The translations under genes were made by a program, and so were the position numbers. Positions 9,640-29,452 of a stretch of DNA of 64,000 bases are shown here, in pieces. The notes beneath the pieces are model-generated. The model saw only the letters and a list, made by a program, of their open reading frames with translations, had not been told where the DNA came from and did not search any database. The DNA is from Patescibacteria group bacterium (GTDB lineage Bacteria; Patescibacteriota; Patescibacteriia; Buchananbacterales; UBA6539), in contig JAQTYZ010000001.1 of assembly GCA_028688055.1 (NCBI GenBank), forward strand, positions 39,866 to 103,865, in the 5' to 3' direction. Position 1 is the stretch's first letter. Each line of letters opens with the position of its first letter.

Positions 9640-9713
9640 GGGGGCGTAGTTCAACAGTAGAACGGCGGTCTCCAAAACCGCAGACGAGGGAGCGTCACCT
9701 TCCGCCCCTGCCA
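9640..9713 (+). tRNA. tRNA-Trp (anticodon CCA) with an atypical T-loop
   Basis: The acceptor is GGGGGCG/CGCCCCT (G1:T72 wobble), the D-arm is GTTC-AACAGTA-GAAC and the anticodon stem-loop is GCGGT-CTCCAAA-ACCGC. The T-stem is GAGGG/CCTTC, but the loop is AGCGTCA and lacks the TTCRA consensus. CCA is encoded and a terminator follows. Confidence 0.6.
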
Positions 9714-9717
9714 AAAA

Positions 9718-9746
9718 ACAGCAGCTGTTAAGCTGCTGTTTTTTTA
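9718..9746 (+). terminator. Rho-independent terminator after tRNA-Trp
   Basis: A 9-bp stem acagcagct-gtta-agctgctgt is followed by ttttttt. Confidence 0.8.
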
Positions 9747-17789: not shown

Positions 17790-18521
17790 ATGGTTAAAAA
17801 AGTTAAGAAAAATAAATCAAGTCATACCAGAGTACTTAATCTACCATCAATTAAGTTGCCAATTAAACCATTGACTCATCGTGATATTGACCGTGATATT
17901 CAAAGTCGGGTTTCTCGAATCGATGTTGAGTTTACTAATGGTTTTAATTTTATCAAAACCATTTCGCAGTCGGTAACTTTTTTTGGATCAGCTCGTTTAC
18001 CTAAAAAAGATCCGTATTACCAAAAAGCTGAACGGCTTGGCAAACGCATCGCGGCGATGGGGTATTCGGTTGTTACTGGTGGTGGGCCGGGAATTATGGA
18101 AGCGGCCAATCGCGGGGCTTTTAAGGAGAATAAAAATTATTCAGTTGGTTTAACGATACGTTTGCCTCGCGAGCAGGTTGTTAATCCATATATCAACAAT
18201 TATTATGAGTTTTATTATTTTTTTACGCGAAAAGTTTGCTTAACTTTTTCAGCTGAAGCCTATGTTTATTTCCCCGGCGGTTTTGGAACTTTAGATGAAT
18301 TTTTCGAAATTTTAACCTTGGTCCAAACTAATAAAATCGTCAAAGTGCCAATCATTTTAGTTGGTAAAGATTTTTGGCAGCCGCTTGATGATTTTATCAA
18401 AAAAACTTTGGCCAAAAAATATCAAACTATCCACGGCCAGGATCGCAATTTGTATATTATTACCGACGACGAAGATAAGATTATGGAGATTGTCAGCCAA
18501 GCGCCGATTAAACAATGGTAG
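17790..18521 (+). CDS. LOG-family protein (cytokinin riboside 5'-monophosphate phosphoribohydrolase-like, TIGR00730)
   Basis: Motifs VTGGGPGIMEAANRGA and PGGFGTLDE are present. The start is taken at the ATG at 17790, just after the upstream stop. Confidence 0.75.
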   Translation: MVKKVKKNKSSHTRVLNLPSIKLPIKPLTHRDIDRDIQSRVSRIDVEFTNGFNFIKTISQSVTFFGSARLPKKDPYYQKAERLGKRIAAMGYSVVTGGGPGIMEAANRGAFKENKNYSVGLTIRLPREQVVNPYINNYYEFYYFFTRKVCLTFSAEAYVYFPGGFGTLDEFFEILTLVQTNKIVKVPIILVGKDFWQPLDDFIKKTLAKKYQTIHGQDRNLYIITDDEDKIMEIVSQAPIKQW

Positions 18522-18531
18522 TTATTTGCCT

Positions 18532-21060
18532 ATGGCCCAACAAGATATTCTAAAGTACAGTGCCAAAAGTATCGCTGAAGTTAGCGCCGATTTTGGCGTT
18601 AATTTTGATACTGGTTTAAGCGAAGTCGAGGCCGAAAAACGACTTGGTCTGAACGGACGCAACGAGTTATCTAATCAAAAGGTTAAGTGGTGGGATATTC
18701 TCTGGCGTCAGTTAGCATCGCCCTTTATCTATTTTTTATTTGGTGCCGGGGTTTTATCATTATCATTACGGGAGTTTATTGATGGTTTAATGATTTTTTT
18801 ATTTTTACTGATTAATACCGCGCTTGGTTTTTATCAGGAATTTCGTTCCGAAAAAACCTTGGAATTATTAAAAACCTTTGTGGCCTCATATTCTAAGGTG
18901 TTTCGAGGGGGTAAGGAAATGGTCATTGCTTCCAGTCTGTTAGTACCGGGTGATTTAATTATTTTAGAAACCGGCGACAAGATTCCCGCTGATGTTAGAT
19001 TTATTGATTGTATTAACACCACGGTTGATGAGTCAATTTTGACCGGCGAATCGATTGCGATAAAAAAAGTTGCCTCGGAATTGTCTAAGCCAGCAACTGA
19101 AATGTTTGAGGCGGTCAATTTTGGTTTTTCGGGAACAGCCCTTGTCAACGGTAAGGCTAAGGCAATTGTCTTGGCAACCGGCAAGGGAACCGCGTTAGGT
19201 CAGGTTAGTAAATTAGTCGCTGAAACAAAGCATGTCAGTAATTTTGAGAAGGGCATTGCCAAGTTTAGTAAATTTATTTTGCAGCTTATTGTCGTCACCT
19301 TAATTTTTATTTTTTTGGCAAATATTTTTATCAAAGGTTCAAGCGCCAATATTATTGAATTAATTATTTTTTCAATCGCGTTGGCGGTTAGTGTTATTCC
19401 TGAAGCGCTGCCGGTCGTTACAACTTTTTCACTTTCCCGCGGCGCGCTCAGATTGGCGAAACAAAAAGTAGTCGTCAAACGGTTGTCAGCTGTTGAAGAT
19501 TTAGGTGGTATTGAAGTTTTATGTACGGATAAGACCGGAACGTTAACGGAAAATAAATTAACCGTGATTGATTTATATGGTCAAGCCGACACAGTATTTT
19601 GGAGTAATCTTGCAACTTCATCACCCCAAGAAAAGAAGTTAGAGCCTTTTGATATTGCCCTTTGGGACCGGCTTTCGGGTAAAGAAAAAAATGATCTTAA
19701 AAAATATCAGCGTTTGGCCGATGTGCCGTTTGATCCGCTTCGCCGCCGTAATAGCGTGCTGGCTAAGGATGCTAATCAGCAAGTATTAATTGTTCGAGGA
19801 GCACCTGAGGCAATAATTAGTTTATGTTCAAACTTTACTTCAGCTCAAAAAAGTAAAGCTTTAAAATGGGTGTCGGAACAAGGTGAAGTCGGCCATCGGG
19901 TTTTAGCCGTGGCCAAACGAGAGCTTCATCTTCGTGACTACTCAACGGTGGTTGATAATGAAAAAGACCTAAAGTTTATTGGCATTATTTCATTTACTGA
20001 CCCGATCAAATCAACAACGACCGCGGCGGTTAAACATTCGCGCGAACTTGGCGTCAGCATTAAAATCATTACTGGTGATAGTCGCGAGGTTGCCGGAGCG
20101 GTGGCGAAACAAATTGGTTTGATTGATGACTGTCATCAAGTAATTAGCGGTGAAGAACTTGACCAGTTGTCGGTTAGCAAACAACTGGCCGCTGTTGAAA
20201 GTTTTTCCGTTTTTGCCAGAATTTCGCCGGAGCAAAAATATAAGATTATCGAGTTACTGCAGAAAAAATTTGCCGTTGGATTTTTAGGCGAAGGCATCAA
20301 TGACGCGCCGGCTCTCAAGATCGCTGGTGTTTCAATGGTGGTCCAAAGTGCGGCGGACATCGCCAGAGAGGCGGCGGACATCGTGTTAATAAATAAAAGT
20401 TTGAAATCAATTGTTGATGGCATCAAAGAGGGAAGAAAAATTTTTGCTAATACTACCAAGTATATCCGGGCCACACTGTCGTCAAATTTCGGAAATTTTT
20501 ATGCAGTGGCTGTAGCCTCGCTGCTGATAAATTATTTACCAATGTTGGCGCTTCAGATCTTATTGGTAAACTTATTATCAGATTTTCCAATGATTGCCAT
20601 TGCTTCAGATAATATTGATTCGGAGGAAATAGAAAACCCCAAGCAGTATAATTTAAAGGAAATTGTTTTGATCGCGACGTTACTTGGTGTTGTCAGTAGT
20701 GTTTTTGATTTTATTTTTTTTGGTATTTATTCGCGTATTTCACCGCACGTGCTGCAAACCAATTGGTTTATTGGTAGTATTTTGACCGAATTAGTTTTTA
20801 TGTTTTCGATTAGAACCAAGCGTCCATTTTTTCGCTCCAAGCGTCCATCGAGTCCGCTTCTCTGGCTAAGCGTTCTCGCCGCGTTTGTAACGGTTGGGTT
20901 GCCTTATACTTATCTTGGCCAACATATATTTTCCTTGACGCCGCCAACCCCGCAATTTTTAGCCATCGACTTAGCTTTAGTCTTAGCATATTTTGTCGTA
21001 ACCGAAACAGTGAAGTTGATGTATTATCGTCGTTTCAGTCCATCGGTGGCTAGTAAATAA
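18532..21060 (+). CDS. Cation-transporting P-type ATPase (P2/P3-type, Ca2+/Mg2+-like)
   Basis: It has the TGES actuator motif, the phosphorylation site CTDKTGTLT, the TGD motif and the GDGINDAPALK hinge, with 8-10 TM helices. The start is taken at the ATG at 18532 (MAQQDILKYS). Confidence 0.85.
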   Translation: MAQQDILKYSAKSIAEVSADFGVNFDTGLSEVEAEKRLGLNGRNELSNQKVKWWDILWRQLASPFIYFLFGAGVLSLSLREFIDGLMIFLFLLINTALGFYQEFRSEKTLELLKTFVASYSKVFRGGKEMVIASSLLVPGDLIILETGDKIPADVRFIDCINTTVDESILTGESIAIKKVASELSKPATEMFEAVNFGFSGTALVNGKAKAIVLATGKGTALGQVSKLVAETKHVSNFEKGIAKFSKFILQLIVVTLIFIFLANIFIKGSSANIIELIIFSIALAVSVIPEALPVVTTFSLSRGALRLAKQKVVVKRLSAVEDLGGIEVLCTDKTGTLTENKLTVIDLYGQADTVFWSNLATSSPQEKKLEPFDIALWDRLSGKEKNDLKKYQRLADVPFDPLRRRNSVLAKDANQQVLIVRGAPEAIISLCSNFTSAQKSKALKWVSEQGEVGHRVLAVAKRELHLRDYSTVVDNEKDLKFIGIISFTDPIKSTTTAAVKHSRELGVSIKIITGDSREVAGAVAKQIGLIDDCHQVISGEELDQLSVSKQLAAVESFSVFARISPEQKYKIIELLQKKFAVGFLGEGINDAPALKIAGVSMVVQSAADIAREAADIVLINKSLKSIVDGIKEGRKIFANTTKYIRATLSSNFGNFYAVAVASLLINYLPMLALQILLVNLLSDFPMIAIASDNIDSEEIENPKQYNLKEIVLIATLLGVVSSVFDFIFFGIYSRISPHVLQTNWFIGSILTELVFMFSIRTKRPFFRSKRPSSPLLWLSVLAAFVTVGLPYTYLGQHIFSLTPPTPQFLAIDLALVLAYFVVTETVKLMYYRRFSPSVASK

Positions 21061-22191: not shown

Positions 22192-22272
22192 TTAAACCAA
22201 TCGGTACAAAAGAGGCTTACTTAGCCTCTTTTGACTTTGCTAAAAAAATGTGGGAAAATTAGTAAACGTTAA

Positions 22273-24390: not shown

Positions 24391-24419
24391 TTGACGCACT
24401 ACATAGAGTAGTGTATACT
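24391..24419 (+). promoter_or_regulatory. Promoter of the dsbA-like gene with an embedded dyad
   Basis: The -35 is TTGACG, the 17-nt spacer is cactacatagagtagtg and the -10 is TATACT. The spacer contains the inverted repeat cactac/gtagtg. The arsR promoter at 26616 uses the same hexamers. Confidence 0.5.
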
Positions 24420-24453
24420 TAAAATAAGTTAATTATTTAATTATTATTTTTTT

Positions 24454-25194
24454 ATGTCGCAAGGTTTTTTTGACAATATGAATGGCAAACAAGGCTTAGT
24501 CTTTGGCTTAATCACTGGTATCGCCATTGTTAGTCTGGTCGGTATGGGGGCTTTATTGGCCAACGGTGGCAGTTTTTTTACCCCTAATAATAGTGGTAAT
24601 AATATTGCCGACGCTAACCCAACACCAACACCAACACCAACACCCTCACCTGATCCTGTTGCCGATGCCAGTAAAATAGCGGCGGTAACTAAAACTGATC
24701 ACGTTCGGGGTAATTTTAATGCCAAGTTGACCCTCGTTGAGTATTCCGATTTTCAGTGTCCGTTTTGCGGTCGACACGAGCCAACAGTCGAGCAAATAAT
24801 GGCGAAGTATGGTGATAAAGTTAGATTGGTTTATCGACATTTCCCGTTAACTTCAATTCATCCCTACGCTCAAAAGGCATCCGAGGCTTCAGAGTGCGCG
24901 TCAGAGCAGGGAAAATTTTGGGAATATCATGATATCCTATTCAAAAATCAGGATGCTTTAACCGTTAGTGACTTAAAAAAATATGCTGGAACGCTTAGCC
25001 TAAAACAAGATCAATTTGATGCTTGCCTCGATTCAGGTAAATACACTCAAAAGGTAAATACCGAGGCTTCAGAGGCGCAGGCGGCTGGTGTGACTGGTAC
25101 GCCGGGAACGTTTGTTGGTGACCAGCTGGTTAGTGGGGCGGTACCATTCGCTCAATTTACGCAGATTATCGATTCTCAGTTAAGTAAGTTGTAA
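24454..25194 (+). CDS. DsbA-like thioredoxin-fold protein (thiol:disulfide oxidoreductase), membrane-anchored
   Basis: It has an N-terminal TM helix, a (PT)n linker and the CPFC active site in DFQCPFCGRHEP. The spacing of the fold is DsbA/BdbD-like. Confidence 0.7.
   Translation: MSQGFFDNMNGKQGLVFGLITGIAIVSLVGMGALLANGGSFFTPNNSGNNIADANPTPTPTPTPSPDPVADASKIAAVTKTDHVRGNFNAKLTLVEYSDFQCPFCGRHEPTVEQIMAKYGDKVRLVYRHFPLTSIHPYAQKASEASECASEQGKFWEYHDILFKNQDALTVSDLKKYAGTLSLKQDQFDACLDSGKYTQKVNTEASEAQAAGVTGTPGTFVGDQLVSGAVPFAQFTQIIDSQLSKL
24621..24644 (+). repeat. (aacacc)4 microsatellite encoding a PTPTPTPT linker
   Basis: It is a direct hexanucleotide tandem repeat inside the dsbA-like ORF. Confidence 0.7.
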
Positions 25195-25202
25195 CCATCA
25201 AA

Positions 25203-25230
25203 GGCCGCTTAAGCTAAGGCTTAAGCGGCC
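25203..25230 (+). promoter_or_regulatory. Perfect 12-bp inverted repeat, either a hairpin or an operator, 13 nt upstream of blaI
   Basis: The sequence is ggccgcttaagc-taag-gcttaagcggcc. No U-tract follows, so it is not a canonical terminator. It may be a BlaI-family operator or an attenuator. Confidence 0.4.
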
Positions 25231-25242
25231 TGGTTAAAAAAA

Positions 25243-25650
25243 ATGAAAAAATTTAAACCGTCAACAATTCATTTGGCCGCGCGCGGGCCGCAAAAAGTTT
25301 TGGGCGAAGTGGAATCCAAAATTATGAATTTGGTTTGGCGCGATACGGAGCTAACCGTGAGACAAGTTCGAGATTTCTTAGCAGCTGAGTATAAAGAGCT
25401 CTCATTTAATGCGGTTATGACAATAATGAACCGTTTAACCGTTAAAAAATTACTCTTAAAAAAAAGCAAAGCGGGAATCAATGTTTACCAGTCACTCGTC
25501 ACTCGGGCGGATTTTTCTAGGTTGATAACCAGAGATATTATCGCATCGCTGCTTGAAGACCCGATGCTGTTTAGTAGCGCCGGATTTTTGGGTATTGCCA
25601 AAGATTTTGACGATAAAGACATTGCCAAACTAAAAAAATTGCTCAGCTAA
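25243..25650 (+). CDS. BlaI/MecI/CopY-family transcriptional repressor
   Basis: The winged-helix N-terminus GEVESKIMNLVW...TVRQV...NAVMTIMNRLTVKKLL matches the Penicillinase_R family. Length is 135 aa. Confidence 0.7.
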   Translation: MKKFKPSTIHLAARGPQKVLGEVESKIMNLVWRDTELTVRQVRDFLAAEYKELSFNAVMTIMNRLTVKKLLLKKSKAGINVYQSLVTRADFSRLITRDIIASLLEDPMLFSSAGFLGIAKDFDDKDIAKLKKLLS

Positions 25651-25654
25651 AATT

Positions 25655-26614
25655 ATGATGAATTTAATCAAATTTCGTCAGCAGTTTTATTTAGGTCTGT
25701 TGGCGATTAGTCTGCCGATATTTTTGTTGGTGGCGTTTTTAGGCGGCTTAAAAAAAATTGTTGGCAACTGGAATATATTTTTTTCGTTCTGTTCAAAAAC
25801 TATTAATTTTTTGTTCGGATTTATATTTTACTATCAAAATTTTTGGCTCATTCTAATTGTTGGCGGTTTTGCCTTTTATTTATTCAAAGGCTTTACTTTT
25901 ATTTTGTTGCAAACTTTTAAATTAAGTCGCATCAAAAACCGCCTCAATAACTCGTTGTCAACTAGTGTGGTGGGTCTCCGTGGTAACTTAATAGTTGAAG
26001 ATTCCAGGGTTTATGCTTTTACGACCGGTTTTTTACAGCCCAAAACCTATCTTTCAACCGGACTACTAAAGAAACTAGCTTATGAAGAATTGGTGGCCGT
26101 AACGACTCATGAAGATTTCCATCGCCATAATTTTCATCCCTTAAGTTTGTTACTGATTAATTCGCTTAGAGCTTTTTTTTCTTTTTTGCCGTTAGTAAAA
26201 GACGTGGCCGATTTTTTGGGTAAACGCTATGAATATCAAGCTGACGTCGCGGCCTTAGCTTTTGTGAGTAAAAGAACTTTAGCGACCGCCTTAGTTAAGG
26301 TTTTGGAAATAGACAACACAATTGATCTCCCGATAGCCGTTGCTTCATTCGCGTCAAATTATCGCGTTGATTTATTGACCTCAAATCAAGCTCCAAAATT
26401 ATTGTTTTCAAAATTTTGGTTGGTCGTAAGTTTAACCGTCTTTATCGGAGCAGTGGCTTTAACCTTTAGTCCGTCAGCCAGTCGGGCATCGACCAAGATC
26501 GTTAACAGTGGTGCTAATAATTTTTATTGTTTTAGCTCGGGCGAATCAATTATGTCACTAGTGAGTTTTGGCCAATCCGAAGCACTGATGACTATTGATT
26601 TTTCTAATAAATAG
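25655..26614 (+). CDS. BlaR1/MecR1-like M56 membrane metallopeptidase lacking the C-terminal sensor domain
   Basis: There are multiple TM helices and an HExxH motif (THEDFH) in a cytoplasmic loop. It lies 4 nt downstream of blaI. At 319 aa it is far shorter than the ~585 aa of sensor-bearing BlaR1. Confidence 0.6.
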   Translation: MMNLIKFRQQFYLGLLAISLPIFLLVAFLGGLKKIVGNWNIFFSFCSKTINFLFGFIFYYQNFWLILIVGGFAFYLFKGFTFILLQTFKLSRIKNRLNNSLSTSVVGLRGNLIVEDSRVYAFTTGFLQPKTYLSTGLLKKLAYEELVAVTTHEDFHRHNFHPLSLLLINSLRAFFSFLPLVKDVADFLGKRYEYQADVAALAFVSKRTLATALVKVLEIDNTIDLPIAVASFASNYRVDLLTSNQAPKLLFSKFWLVVSLTVFIGAVALTFSPSASRASTKIVNSGANNFYCFSSGESIMSLVSFGQSEALMTIDFSNK

Positions 26615-26615
26615 T

Positions 26616-26644
26616 TTGACGCTGATTTTTTTTGATTATATACT
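26616..26644 (+). promoter_or_regulatory. Promoter of the arsR-family gene
   Basis: The -35 TTGACG, a 17-nt spacer and the -10 TATACT are the same hexamers as in the dsbA-like promoter. Confidence 0.45.
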
Positions 26645-26671
26645 TAAGAAGTTGCTTAATTATTTAAAGAT

Positions 26672-26989
26672 ATGATTTCCGCGTCCGAATTATCACAACT
26701 TAAAAAATACGCTTCAAAAGTTGATGAAAAAATGGTTCGTTTATTTGATGCCCTTGGTGATATTAATCGCTATAAAATTTTTAATCTGCTGTTAGAAAAA
26801 AGAGGGGACATCTGCGTTTCTGAGTTTGCCGAGATCCTAAAAATTTCAGTACCGGCCGCATCACAGCAATTAAAAAGTTTAGAGCTCTCTGGGCTAATTA
26901 AAAGAGTCAGAAACGGCCAGTCAATTTGTTATCAAGCTAAAGCGACCGATCCGCGCGTTAAGTCGCTTATTACTTCCATCAAATCATAA
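26672..26989 (+). CDS. ArsR/SmtB-family transcriptional regulator
   Basis: LGDINRYKIFNLLLEKRGDICVSEFAEILKISVPAASQQLKSLELSGLIKRVRNGQSICY is a classic ArsR HTH. Confidence 0.75.
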   Translation: MISASELSQLKKYASKVDEKMVRLFDALGDINRYKIFNLLLEKRGDICVSEFAEILKISVPAASQQLKSLELSGLIKRVRNGQSICYQAKATDPRVKSLITSIKS

Positions 26990-26996
26990 AACGATT

Positions 26997-27761
26997 ATGG
27001 ATTTATCTTTAGTCATCCCGGTATTTATCGCCGGCGTCCTAACTTTTTTGGCCCCCTGCTCATTGCCTTTAGTGCCGGGCTATTTAGCCTTTATCAGTGG
27101 TGTCAGTTTCGGCGACGTCAGAGACGGGGTTTCTGATTCAGCCACGCGCAAGAAAATTTTGCTCAATGGTTCAATGTATGTTATTGGCTTTAGTCTGGTT
27201 TTTGTGGTGCTTGGTTCGATTTTTGGTTTAGCCGGGATGGTTTTAGCGCAGTATCGGTTTTGGCTTTACCGAATTGGCGGTATTTTTATTATTTTTTTTG
27301 GACTTTATCTAATTCATTTTTTTGATTTGTCATTTTTTAAATTTTTAGCCATTGATCGTCACTTTAAGTTCGGTTCAACCTTAACACCAGGTAAACCAAT
27401 TAGCTCGCTTATTTTTGGTATGATTTTTGCCCTGGGCTGGACACCTTGCATCGGCCCGATCCTGGGAACGGTTCTGGTGTTGGTGGCAACCACCGGTACC
27501 TTGATTCAGGGTGCGTTGCTGCTGGCGATATTTTCTTTAGGCTTGGCAGTGCCATATTTATTTTTAAGCTTAGCCTTTGGACAGGCCACTAGGTACCTCA
27601 AAAAAGTATCCAAATTTTTAAATATTACGACGCTGGTCAGTGGTATTTTTTTAATTTTTTTTGGAATTTTAATCGTCACCGATTCGGTTGGACTTTGGAC
27701 GGTCTGGTTTAATAAACTGTTTTATGTTTTTGATTTCAATCAGCTCTTAGACTATCTCTAA
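26997..27761 (+). CDS. ccdA: Cytochrome c biogenesis CcdA / DsbD-beta-type thiol-disulfide transporter
   Basis: The two Cys motifs are LAPCSLPLVPGY and GWTPCIGPILG. There are six TM helices. Confidence 0.75.
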   Translation: MDLSLVIPVFIAGVLTFLAPCSLPLVPGYLAFISGVSFGDVRDGVSDSATRKKILLNGSMYVIGFSLVFVVLGSIFGLAGMVLAQYRFWLYRIGGIFIIFFGLYLIHFFDLSFFKFLAIDRHFKFGSTLTPGKPISSLIFGMIFALGWTPCIGPILGTVLVLVATTGTLIQGALLLAIFSLGLAVPYLFLSLAFGQATRYLKKVSKFLNITTLVSGIFLIFFGILIVTDSVGLWTVWFNKLFYVFDFNQLLDYL

Positions 27762-27825: not shown

Positions 27826-28050
27826 ATGACAAATTCTTGGGTGTCGTCAGTTATTATTTTATTTTTAATGACAGTGTTGTCGTGGACTTTAATTTTTAGC
27901 CGCCGGTGGCGGTTGTTTGTAGCAGCATTTTTTTTATTATTGTGGCTAGCGATTGATTTGATAAATTTTTACGACGCGTTGAACGTTTTATTGGGAACAG
28001 GCATTAAGCTTGGTTCGGAGTTATCATACTTAGTAAACAGCAATGTTTGA
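27826..28050 (+). CDS. Small hypothetical membrane protein
   Basis: This is a 74-aa ORF with two hydrophobic helices. Confidence 0.3.
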   Translation: MTNSWVSSVIILFLMTVLSWTLIFSRRWRLFVAAFFLLLWLAIDLINFYDALNVLLGTGIKLGSELSYLVNSNV

Positions 28051-29452
28051 ATATTTTAAAATCATTTTAGCTCTTTTGCTCATTTGGCCGCGCGGCTATA
28101 TTTTAATATACTTAATTGACCGCAGCAAAAATTTTAGTTTTGGTTTTAAGTTTTTTGCCGGTTGGTTATTAGGGTTGTCAGGCTTTACGATGGATTTATT
28201 TGCCGCCAATGTTTTTGGCGGACAATCATTCGGACCATTAGTTTACGCTTTGTCATCAGTATCACAGATTTTTGGCTTTGGTTTTTTGATTTTTATTGCT
28301 GAACATAAATTGCCATATCCGCACTTTAAAAATTTAAAGCCATTGGTAAAAAAACAGTGGCAAACATTTCAAAAATTTAAGCCAGCTGAAATTTTGGCCT
28401 TTGGTTTGTTACTTATCAGTATTTTTGCCCGCCTCGTGTTTGGTTTTACCTCGATCAATGACAAGTCGACCTATCAATTTGATCCAATCAGTGGTGGCAA
28501 TCTGGACGCGCGGGAAATTTATAATTTGCATGTTATCCCGACTGATTCATCGCAGCCGTATTATTTGGGCGGCCCGGATTCGCAGCCGCTTAATGATACG
28601 ATGGTCAAGGTTTGGCTGTCGGTGGCGGCTGGTAGCTTTGATTATAAATATGTTAATTTAGCGGGCCTGTTTTATTATCTTGTCTTGATGACTGTTTTTT
28701 ATTTTTCACTGCCCGTTCAAGTCAATCGTTTGATAAAATTAATGGCCACCTATCTATTAAGCAGTTTGCCGTTACTGTCGCTGTTTGGTAATTTTGCGCA
28801 GCCTGATATTTTTTTCTCAATCTTTCTTTATTTAACAATTGCGTGCTTATTTTATTATTTGGCTGGCGCCGGATTGTCATTTTATTACTTGTCGGGTATC
28901 ACTTTAGCATTTTCGATTTGGACAAAAAATGAAGGTTTGTCGATTATTTTTCCCTTTATTCTTTCCCTCACCGTTGTTTTATTGCTAATAAAAAAAGTTA
29001 AGTTTAAGGATTTTATGCTCAGTTGGTTTTTTGCCTTTTTAACTGCTTTACCGTGGTTGGCTTTTCTGTTTATCAACCACATCAACGTTATCAGCTCAGA
29101 TTTTAATGCGATAAATTTTGTTGTTAATTATCAACCTTGGTCAGAAATGCTGGCCAGCGGTTTTTGGCTCAATCATTTTAATATTTTGTGGTTTCTGGCC
29201 TTAGCCTTTTTAGTTTTTCGTGGTCGCCAATTATGGCGCGATTGGCCGTTGTGGTTTTTAACCTTTACCTTAATTTTTCTTTTTTCAGTTTATTTAGGGA
29301 TTATTTTATTTACCAATAAGTATAACGATTTAAGTATCCAGACTAGAATTAATTCTCAGTTAGCACCGGTTGCTGTTTTGTTTTTAACATTCTGTTTCCA
29401 CAATTTTTTTGCTAAAATAAAACCATATGCCAGAAAAAAAGCGAAAGCCTAG
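28043..29452 (+). CDS. Polytopic integral membrane protein of unknown function
   Basis: It has at least 10 predicted TM helices and is rich in F, L and W. It lies upstream of the GT28-like glycosyltransferase. Confidence 0.4.
   Translation: MFEYFKIILALLLIWPRGYILIYLIDRSKNFSFGFKFFAGWLLGLSGFTMDLFAANVFGGQSFGPLVYALSSVSQIFGFGFLIFIAEHKLPYPHFKNLKPLVKKQWQTFQKFKPAEILAFGLLLISIFARLVFGFTSINDKSTYQFDPISGGNLDAREIYNLHVIPTDSSQPYYLGGPDSQPLNDTMVKVWLSVAAGSFDYKYVNLAGLFYYLVLMTVFYFSLPVQVNRLIKLMATYLLSSLPLLSLFGNFAQPDIFFSIFLYLTIACLFYYLAGAGLSFYYLSGITLAFSIWTKNEGLSIIFPFILSLTVVLLLIKKVKFKDFMLSWFFAFLTALPWLAFLFINHINVISSDFNAINFVVNYQPWSEMLASGFWLNHFNILWFLALAFLVFRGRQLWRDWPLWFLTFTLIFLFSVYLGIILFTNKYNDLSIQTRINSQLAPVAVLFLTFCFHNFFAKIKPYARKKAKA

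Follow-up and report, generated by a model that had tools for sequence, protein, structure and literature searches.

A sensor-less BlaI/BlaR-type switch and an ArsR-CcdA unit predicted to form an envelope thiol-disulfide module in a Patescibacteria bacterium

Proteases of the M56 family are found near a BlaI repressor in ~96% of cases and only ~6% of them carry a transpeptidase sensor (PMC13492132). In BlaR1, the loop EL1 (residues 56-96) is extracellular and docks into the sensor, and its displacement moves helix alpha3 (PMC9834060). The ligands of the ~94% of BlaR-like proteases that are sensor-less are a stated open question (PMC13492132), and experimental support is available solely for copper and PetP. 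PetP of Synechocystis sp. PCC 6803 is sensor-less and mediates the copper-dependent degradation of PetR, a repressor whose operator is GAC-N5-GTC (10.1101/2020.07.31.226407). Half-sites that are 5 nt apart have also been shown for the BlaI family by DNA affinity purification sequencing and electrophoretic mobility shift assays, as inverted repeats of GTCTAT (PMC8457756). Here we analyze a five-gene locus (24391-27761, forward strand) that encodes a sensor-less BlaR-like protease together with a BlaI-like repressor, a DsbA-like protein, an ArsR-family repressor and CcdA. The locus lies in a stretch of 64,000 nucleotides (the window), to which all coordinates refer unless a related locus is named, from a Patescibacteria group bacterium (assembly GCA_028688055.1, contig JAQTYZ010000001.1, positions 39,866 to 103,865).

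Our preferred reading, to which we give a probability of roughly 0.55 on the basis of sequence comparison, is that a proteolytic BlaI/BlaR switch responds to thiol or thiophilic-metal stress in the envelope by inducing a DsbA that resembles ScsC, beside an autoregulated conduit made of ArsR and CcdA. The two adjacent repressor-controlled units would then constitute a stress-inducible envelope thiol-disulfide module. The locus and its relatives offer a testable answer for one large subfamily of the sensor-less proteases, namely an invariant cysteine pair at the position of sensor coupling in BlaR1, a defined operator and a recurrent regulon of disulfide and copper/mercury genes, one form of which is found in a Bacillus that can be cultured. 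If borne out, this would be among the few regulatory circuits that can be read in Patescibacteria and would describe an unreported control of envelope redox enzymes of the DsbA/CcdA type.

The first unit comprises promoter P1 (24391-24419), the gene for a membrane-anchored, ScsC-like protein of the DsbA type and thioredoxin fold (24454-25194, 246 aa), a BlaI/MecI/CopY-family winged-helix repressor (25243-25650, 135 aa) and a BlaR1-type membrane zinc protease (25655-26614, 319 aa), the start codon of which is separated from the end of blaI by 4 nt. The second unit comprises promoter P2 (26616-26644), an ArsR/SmtB-family repressor (26672-26989, 105 aa) and the CcdA (DsbD_TM) thiol-disulfide transporter (26997-27761, 254 aa). 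All of these features are on the forward strand. This order of five genes, which had been given by the original prediction, is borne out by the open reading frames (ORFs) and by the domain hits of the DsbA-like protein (PF13462, 107.7 bits; PF01323, 87.1 bits), the BlaI-like repressor (PF03965, 62.7 bits, cutoff 22.6), ArsR (NF033788, 67.6 bits, cutoff 55; PF01022, 36.6 bits, cutoff 22) and CcdA (PF02683, 71.1 bits, cutoff 27.1). When the conservation of the gene order was examined, the whole module was found to be syntenic in the closest relative (locus L002, BlaI 81% identical), and the synteny includes the genes downstream.

P1 is made up of the -35 hexamer TTGACG (24391-24396), a spacer of 17 nt and the -10 hexamer TATACT (24414-24419). 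It had been claimed that the dsbA-like and arsR promoters share the arrangement TTGACG-N17-TATACT and that the first of them holds a cactac/gtagtg dyad in its spacer; both claims hold. The 64 kb contain precisely two copies of the arrangement (24391 and 26616) where 0.01 would be expected, and the dyad CACTAC-N5-GTAGTG (CACTACATAGAGTAGTG, 24397-24413, core ACTAC-N5-GTAGT) occupies the entire 17-nt spacer of P1. A single dyad of such a size is no rarity by chance, as 53 of 100 shuffles matched at <=2 mismatches, and its significance is due to its conservation in relatives.

Relatives of the BlaI-like protein were gathered from metagenome assemblies, GTDB genomes and JGI contigs. The motif ACTAC-N5-GTAGT is found 10-40 nt upstream of blaI in Patescibacteria, Bacillus, Paenibacillus, Bifidobacterium, Mycobacterium, Chloroflexota and metagenome-assembled genomes labelled as Gammaproteobacteria. 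With <=1 mismatch allowed, the 684 kb of related loci contain 93 sites compared to ~15 in shuffles, and 29 of the 93 stand directly before blaI, frequencies that are biased because the loci were retrieved via the BlaI alignment or motif and the sample thus leans toward one BlaI motif. The half-site spacing of the dyad in the window (5 nt) is the geometry of the experimentally shown BlaI-family operators. Additionally, the dyad overlaps the promoter of its own operon, as expected for the autoregulating BlaI family, with binding being predicted. Taken with the conservation, this identifies the dyad in the P1 spacer as a genuine, if predicted, BlaI-type operator.

In relatives that lack dsbA (L003, L004, L005, L007, L034 and L035) the operator is located immediately before blaI. 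The interval between dsbA and blaI in the window contains neither an operator nor a promoter-like site, only a hairpin. Because the operator precedes dsbA and the hairpin alone separates dsbA from blaI, dsbA is taken to open the unit that BlaI autoregulates. In L078 and L079 the layout is gatA-blaI-blaR-[TTTACA-CACTACATAACGTAGTG-TATAAT]-dsbA, and the spacer of the L078 dsbA promoter is identical to that of the window at 15/17 positions in a different gene order. In L072-74 dsbA stands alone, and its promoter has ACTACACCGTGTAGT between TTGACC and TATACT. These two further Patescibacteria lineages independently confirm dsbA as a target of the predicted operator. Automated assignment of operators to genes undercounted DsbA targets, the N-termini of which are variable, and the cases were inspected by eye.

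The profile of the BlaI-like repressor matches BlaI (1sd4), Rv1846c of Mycobacterium tuberculosis (2g9w) and MecI (1okr) in the Protein Data Bank (PDB). F115 is invariant in the BlaI alignment and aligns with Phe102 of the scissile site of BlaI (Asn101-Phe102). At this putative cleavage site, however, the residue on the N-terminal side of the scissile bond is Gly, compared to Asn in BlaI. The identity of a CopY/TcrY copper repressor was considered and rejected, as the score against TIGR02698 is 32 bits and the cutoff is 121.95; the C-terminus (...KDIAKLKKLLS) has no Cys, so the CxCxxxxCxC Cu(I) site, the cysteine motif of CopY, is absent.

The protease contains the motif HEDFH (152-156) together with E193, F232, C46 and C292. 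It had been described as a BlaR1-type M56 protease with no sensor domain. The kinship to BlaR1 and the absence of the sensor both stand, and the assignment to M56 is less straightforward, as the score against the Pfam M56 model PF05569 is 25.6 bits, below the cutoff of 31, and the protein passes the M48 model PF01435 (40.4 bits, cutoff 20.3). The relationship to BlaR1 rests on the PDB profile comparison, on Foldseek and on the conserved catalytic and autocleavage residues, not on Pfam M56. The best PDB match of the family profile is BlaR1 (8exp, E 5.5e-8, profile positions 43-280). With the AlphaFold2 (AF2) model, which has a mean predicted local distance difference test score (pLDDT) of 85.7, the top five Foldseek matches are all BlaR1 at a probability of 1.00, with TM-scores of only ~0.4. 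The family alignment shows no variation at H152, E153, H156, E193 and F232, and F232 is aligned to the autocleavage residue F284 of BlaR1 (PMC9834060). The fold and topology are of the BlaR1 type, in which TM helices flank a cytoplasmic gluzincin domain.

No transpeptidase domain (PF00905) or other domain was found after the last transmembrane (TM) helix of the protease, where the tail is 47 aa long. The original prediction had named a truncated gene as a possibility that would undo its reading, and this is ruled out by the lengths in the family. An exhaustive HMMER search returned 2163 cluster representatives at E <=1e-3, the best 150 of which are 216-352 aa long, and the orthologs in L001-L003 and L078 have 307-318 aa. 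A truncated BlaR1 was rejected on these grounds. The sensor-less state is an ordinary one given the ~94% of M56 proteins that have no sensor and the precedent of PetP. The BlaI and BlaR-like pair is retained in L002, L003, L005-L008, L078 and others. Among the relatives taken from genomes, the one nearest to the window BlaI is that of L005 (53% identity).

Two cysteines of the protease, C46 and C292, do not vary among 33 family sequences at 20-59% identity, which equals the conservation of the catalytic residues, and in a crude census both are present in 103 of 151 sequences (the 150 representatives and the window protein). The nearest relatives have 2-3 Cys in total. C46 is located in the outer loop that precedes the long TM helix entering the protease domain and is profile-aligned to residue ~91 of BlaR1, at the end of EL1. 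C292 is located in the 47-aa outer tail after the last TM helix, where the sensor of BlaR1 begins, and heads the motif C[FY]S..ESI[MI]SL[VM][ST]FG.QSE..MT (26528-26611, residues ~292-319), which is kept between the window and L078 at just 38% overall identity. We propose, from these aligned positions, that the C46/C292 pair may replace the contact between EL1 and the sensor and that its state would set the activity of the protease. The tail motif is conserved yet has an AF2 pLDDT of <50, and it may serve as an epitope for binding or undergo a disorder-to-order transition.

The same wiring of BlaI to dsbA could also operate with a pair that is a structural disulfide, stapling the tail to the loop, in which case the tail motif would read unfolded proteins, a peptide, or damage to the wall or membrane. 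Conservation does extend over ~25 aa of the tail beyond the Cys, the tails of CenR have been proposed as ligand or probe regions (PMC13492132), and in L003 and L005 the genes behind the operators encode hydrolases or uncharacterized proteins, not redox proteins. We nevertheless regard this explanation as rather unlikely, as Cys is otherwise almost absent from the protease family and the recurrence across phyla of thiol-disulfide and Cu/Hg genes as operator targets fits a thiol or metal cue better.

This recurrence is seen in the distant loci, where a second operator usually doubles as the -10 box or abuts it. Operators in promoter-like sites precede dsbA in L017, L071 and L021, an HMA-dsbA-DsbD_2/cupredoxin series in L014 and L050, and, in L055, a 180-aa gene that has dsbA and DsbD_2 behind it. 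In Bacillus manliponensis JCM 15802 (L024) the operator stands after blaI-blaR and precedes ccdA, which is followed by a TlpA/ResA-like thioredoxin, and in a metagenome-assembled genome of the Chloroflexota (L011) it also precedes ccdA. CopA-like P1B ATPases are neighbors in L014, L017 and L050, with HMA and cupredoxin-DsbD proteins alongside CopA in all three loci. DsbB is found in the operator-headed operon of L021 and a cation diffusion facilitator transporter in L005, and TlpA is also among the neighbors. Equivalogs of MerA, the mercury(II) reductase, are encoded directly upstream of blaI-blaR at L005:8461-9873 and L055:4494-5933 (TIGR02053, 499 and 513 bits, cutoff 454). At L077:1157-4249 a CsoR-family repressor is followed by a fusion of HMA, DsbD_TM and cupredoxin (582 aa) and by a fusion of HMA and DsbA (341 aa), the latter 54% identical to the DsbA of the window. 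These L077 fusions directly connect DsbA/DsbD with copper in a different organism.

It had been suggested that a BlaR1-like protease with no sensor domain must be triggered in some other way, for example by redox or metal state. The invariant Cys pair and the CopA, HMA, cupredoxin, MerA, DsbB, TlpA and CcdA neighbors in relatives point toward such a trigger, which remains a prediction for the window. Effector genes that are headed by an operator and follow blaI-blaR seem, from the sites compared, to be a general layout. A broader and tentative proposal, which we hold with less than even confidence, is that there is a large cross-phylum subfamily of sensor-less BlaR proteins in which a two-Cys switch, with one Cys at the end of the EL1-like loop and the other in the short conserved tail, stands in for the penicillin-binding domain and senses the envelope thiol state, Cu or Hg, that its conserved regulon comprises DsbA, DsbB, CcdA/DsbD and TlpA together with Cu/Hg defense, and that it serves as the dedicated regulator of the near-universal DsbA in the genome-reduced Patescibacteria.

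Two further observations were made in these loci. Membrane-anchored proteins of 157-180 aa that start with M(R/K)TETKVI(I)GG adjoin dsbA at L017:13100-13594, L055:8513-9055 and L071:7980-8453, and they have no match in Pfam or NCBIfam. A second ACTAC-N5-GTAGT is located just 3' of the blaR-like gene at L013:11261, L019:11241, L025:11231 and L023:11067, which are loci of Paenibacillus, Bifidobacterium breve and Solibacillus.

The DsbA-like protein has one N-terminal TM helix, a PT-rich linker and the motif CPFC at residue 102. Its best relatives in the PDB are the DsbA of C. diphtheriae and the ScsC proteins (4gxz, 6nen, 6mhh and 4xvw; E ~1e-14), and BdbD is a more distant match than the copper-tolerance proteins of the ScsC type with solved structures. 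Over 177 aligned aa the DsbA-like protein shares 91.5% identity with the partial dsbA ORF of L002, and its identity to the stand-alone DsbA that is nearly universal in Patescibacteria is 62-63%. CcdA has the motifs ...LAPCSLPL... and ...GWTPCIGPI..., the APC and TPC motifs, with one Cys each. No DsbB/VKOR-like ORF was found within the 64-kb window, and CcdA, a conduit for reductant, is the sole redox partner in the membrane that is encoded nearby. The DsbA-like protein and CcdA look more like a reducing, isomerizing or metal-defense pair of the ScsC/ScsB type than a plain system for oxidative folding, as far as their sequences indicate, and such a role is at least as likely as oxidative folding. 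The DsbA-like protein could also be a housekeeping oxidase, given how close (62-63% identity) the nearly universal DsbA of Patescibacteria is to it. The original prediction favored a regulated extracytoplasmic oxidative-folding system over beta-lactam sensing. A regulated extracytoplasmic thiol-disulfide module that is not a beta-lactam sensor agrees with what was found, and oxidative folding is doubtful in view of the CcdA partner, the lack of DsbB/VKOR in the window and the likeness to ScsC.

The oxidative role would fit a homeostatic feedback, the alternative nearest to the original prediction, in which the Cys pair is itself a substrate of DsbA. Low capacity for disulfide formation would leave the pair reduced and the protease active, BlaI would be removed and more DsbA made, and metal would have no role in this organism. 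dsbA is the sole effector linked to the operator in the window, L078 and L072, DsbB belongs to the operator-headed operon of L021, and the orthology of the DsbA-like protein to the near-universal stand-alone DsbA suggests a housekeeping oxidase. These points have to be set against the adjacent CcdA, which imports reductant, the DsbB/VKOR-free window, and the operator-linked CcdA and TlpA of the reducing pathway in L024, L011 and L041. The CopA, HMA, cupredoxin and MerA contexts would also be left unexplained, and we consider the feedback to be unlikely.

In the preferred reading, the first unit would be read as P1-operator-dsbA-(stem-loop)-blaI-blaR, and a dimer of the BlaI-like repressor on ACTAC-N5-GTAGT would shut off dsbA as well as its own operon. 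The BlaR-like protease would have its 47-aa outer tail in place of the penicillin-binding sensor, and C292 in the tail together with C46 at the end of the EL1-like outer loop would form a two-cysteine sensing device. A change in the state of the pair, which could be reduced, oxidized or bridged by a thiophilic metal such as Cu(I) or Hg(II), would be relayed to the protease domain in the cytoplasm via the TM helix that follows. The activated protease would cut BlaI near F115 and dsbA would be derepressed, with the stem-loop after dsbA making the regulators less strongly expressed than the effector or uncoupling the two. The second unit would be P2-arsR-ccdA, autoregulated by ArsR/SmtB via a conserved element at the -10/+1 region of P2, and CcdA would carry reducing equivalents across the membrane to the ScsC-like DsbA protein. 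Within this reading, the identities of the genes, the operator with its conservation, the naturally missing sensor, the invariant and outward-placed cysteines and the repeated linkage to DsbA, CcdA, Cu and Hg genes are borne out by sequence and comparison; binding, cleavage, the signal and the pairing of DsbA with CcdA are predictions.

The stem-loop is located between dsbA and blaI (25202-25231, forward strand) and has a 13-bp stem and a 4-nt loop. It had been reported as a perfect 12-bp inverted repeat 13 nt before blaI. The repeat exists, its arms are 13 nt long (25202-25214 and 25219-25231), and 12 nt separate the end of the 12-nt version from the ATG of blaI. The 61 nt of 25190-25250, which contain the stem-loop, fold at a dG of -28.5 kcal/mol (z -6.3). 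In L002 the same position between dsbA and blaI is occupied by a hairpin whose sequence is unrelated, and its 63-nt region folds at a dG of -28.8 (z -7.9). Because the hairpin of L002 is equally stable and unrelated in sequence, the inverted repeat is taken to be an RNA structure and not an operator, and the suggestion that it is a binding site for one of the regulators is not borne out.

The hairpin is followed by GGUUAAAAAAAA with no U tract, and a terminator scan did not call it. Perfect hairpins with A/T flanks are found in the window at 9713-9744 (AAAAAACAGCAGC...GCTGCTGTTTTTT) and 22207-22233 (CAAAAGAGGCT...AGCCTCTTTTG). These look like canonical bidirectional intrinsic terminators and, being A/T-flanked, show that the genome uses U-tract terminators. 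The hairpin between dsbA and blaI was rejected as a canonical terminator, as it has no U tract and the clear terminators of the genome are A/T-flanked. blaI lacks both a promoter and an operator to itself and must therefore be transcribed by read-through across the hairpin, which most likely attenuates or stabilizes the RNA and thereby sets the ratio of effector to regulator. The sequence CTTAAG-N6-CTTAA is present only in this blaI-proximal hairpin and at P2. Binding of ArsR at the hairpin through it was rejected, as L002 keeps the structure and replaces the sequence. An inverted repeat that is after all a protein operator, or else a full terminator that makes dsbA monocistronic and leaves blaI-blaR to separate transcription, would account for a perfect 13-bp dyad near the start of blaI and for the sequence that it shares with P2. 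The equally stable but unrelated hairpin of L002, the missing U tract compared to the A/T flanks of the clear terminators, and an autoregulation that needs read-through from P1 when no operator or promoter-like site precedes blaI make either version very improbable.

At the second unit, ACTTAAGAAGTTGCTTAATTATTTAAA (26642-26668) overlaps the -10/+1 region of P2 and contains TTAAG-N6-CTTAA. It is 26/27 identical in L001/L002, where the promoter spacer is different, and this conservation makes it a candidate ArsR operator or 5' untranslated region element. ArsR has none of the recognized metal sites of its family (alpha3 CxC, alpha3N or alpha5 Asp/His/His/Glu) in complete form; the canonical alpha5 site is absent, and there is no N-terminal Cys or His and no His in the C-terminal helix. 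A single Cys at the alpha3 position (C48, in ICVSE) aligns to C61 of SmtB, and C86 is also present; among the homologs C86 is conserved in three and C48 in two.

P1 (24391-24440) and P2 (26616-26667) share TTTGACGC, TATACTTAA and the 12-mer TTAATTATTTAA. The 12-mer has two copies in the 64 kb, both at these promoters at offsets of +15 and +17 from the -10 hexamer, and 0.14 are expected. The shared sequence could reflect duplication of a promoter cassette or binding of both promoters by one factor. With a common factor the two units might be cross-wired, so that ArsR binds the shared element in both promoters and is the master regulator of dsbA instead of BlaI or besides it. The three shared sequences and the near-equal offset of the 12-mer favor this view. 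The spacing of the TTAA half-sites, however, is unequal between P1 and P2, a duplicated cassette accounts for the identity equally well, and the pattern was picked post hoc with its P1 side known from the window alone, so that cross-wiring appears improbable.

Several points weigh against the reading of a thiol- or metal-responsive switch that controls dsbA beside an ArsR-CcdA conduit. The cluster in the window contains neither a metal transporter nor a metal-binding domain, and the nearby P-type ATPase is of the Mg/H type. The AF2 model has a pLDDT of <50 in the tail and ~68 at C46 and gives no support to proximity of the two cysteines, and C46 and C292 could be a purely structural disulfide. 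The partnership of DsbA with CcdA is suggested by their adjacency and by the analogy to ScsC and ScsB only. The canonical metal sites of ArsR are incomplete and give no prediction of its effector, and the candidate operator ACTTAAGAAGTTGCTTAATTATTTAAA is conserved in one independent relative only. The bias of the sampled loci belongs here as well. The dsbA genes of the Patescibacteria loci L075/76, L080 and L081 have no operator, and L003 and L006-L008, relatives from the candidate phyla radiation, have the BlaI/BlaR pair without DsbA/CcdA. The link between operator and dsbA is, for these last two reasons, variable among lineages.

Other genes of the window were also examined. The P-type ATPase at 18361-21060 was considered as a copper pump and rejected, as it is closest to the Mg-translocating/H+-type enzymes (592 bits against TIGR01524, just below the cutoff), and it is unrelated to the module. 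Two ORFs in overlapping frames follow ccdA at 27826-28050 (74 aa) and 28043-29452 (469 aa, multi-pass membrane protein). They have no Pfam match and are syntenic in L002 (66% and 85% identity), and they may belong, with the module, to one functional neighborhood.

The system belongs to a known class of non-canonical BlaI/BlaR switches, for which PetRP and CenIR are precedents. In a literature search of incomplete coverage, which can provide absence of evidence only, a link of BlaI/BlaR to DsbA, CcdA, ScsC, MerA or copper resistance was found only for PetRP. The operator link to DsbA/CcdA across phyla, the association with Cu and Hg and the invariant extracytoplasmic Cys pair appear undescribed in the literature.

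As in PetR/PetP, a BlaI/CopY-family repressor with no CopY Cys motif is encoded ahead of a membrane protease of the M48/M56 type that has no beta-lactam sensor, and the operator half-sites are 5 nt apart in both systems. PetR is removed proteolytically in response to metal, which is predicted only for the repressor described here. The proposed ligands of PetP are two Met residues in the TM2-TM3 loop, whereas here they would be a Cys of the outer loop and a Cys of the C-terminal tail. The regulon of PetR consists of petE and petJ, whereas here it would consist of dsbA (in relatives also ccdA, dsbB, tlpA, copA, HMA and cupredoxin genes), and the signal is a predicted one.

The BlaI/BlaR1 and MecI/MecR1 systems of S. 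aureus (PMC9834060) share with the locus the fold of the repressor, a dyad that overlaps the promoter, autoregulation, the HExxH...E residues between TM helices, the autocleavage Phe (F232, F284 in BlaR1) and a conserved Phe at the scissile site, putative here, of the repressor. They differ in that the protease described here has a 47-aa tail and not a transpeptidase-like sensor and scores below the Pfam M56 cutoff. The targets of the S. aureus systems are a beta-lactamase or PBP2a and the genes form a divergon, whereas the target here would be a thiol-disulfide oxidoreductase in a co-directional operon. CenI/CenR of Clostridioides difficile (PMC13492132) is likewise a non-canonical BlaIR pair with a short extracellular tail that is not a penicillin-binding protein. 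The CenR tail is ~125 aa long and mostly unstructured, with a regulon of the cell wall, whereas the tail described here is short and contains an invariant Cys, and the regulon is predicted to be of the thiol/metal type.

The same winged-helix family includes CopY/TcrY (TIGR02698 is the best NCBIfam match of the repressor), which also have a TAC..GTA-type operator. The C-terminal CxCx4CxC of CopY/TcrY is absent here, and the signal would presumably arrive via the protease and not by direct binding of metal. As in ScsB/ScsC and DsbD/DsbC, a DsbA-like protein is encoded beside a membrane electron conduit of the DsbD family, and in relatives HMA or cupredoxin domains are fused to these two proteins. 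Unlike ScsB, the CcdA of the locus is a minimal TM domain without the periplasmic domains, and the DsbA-like protein is TM-anchored and of the monomer type. The window has no copper-related gene, and the regulation predicted for the locus is by BlaI/BlaR and ArsR, compared to the CpxR/CueR-type regulation of ScsB/ScsC.

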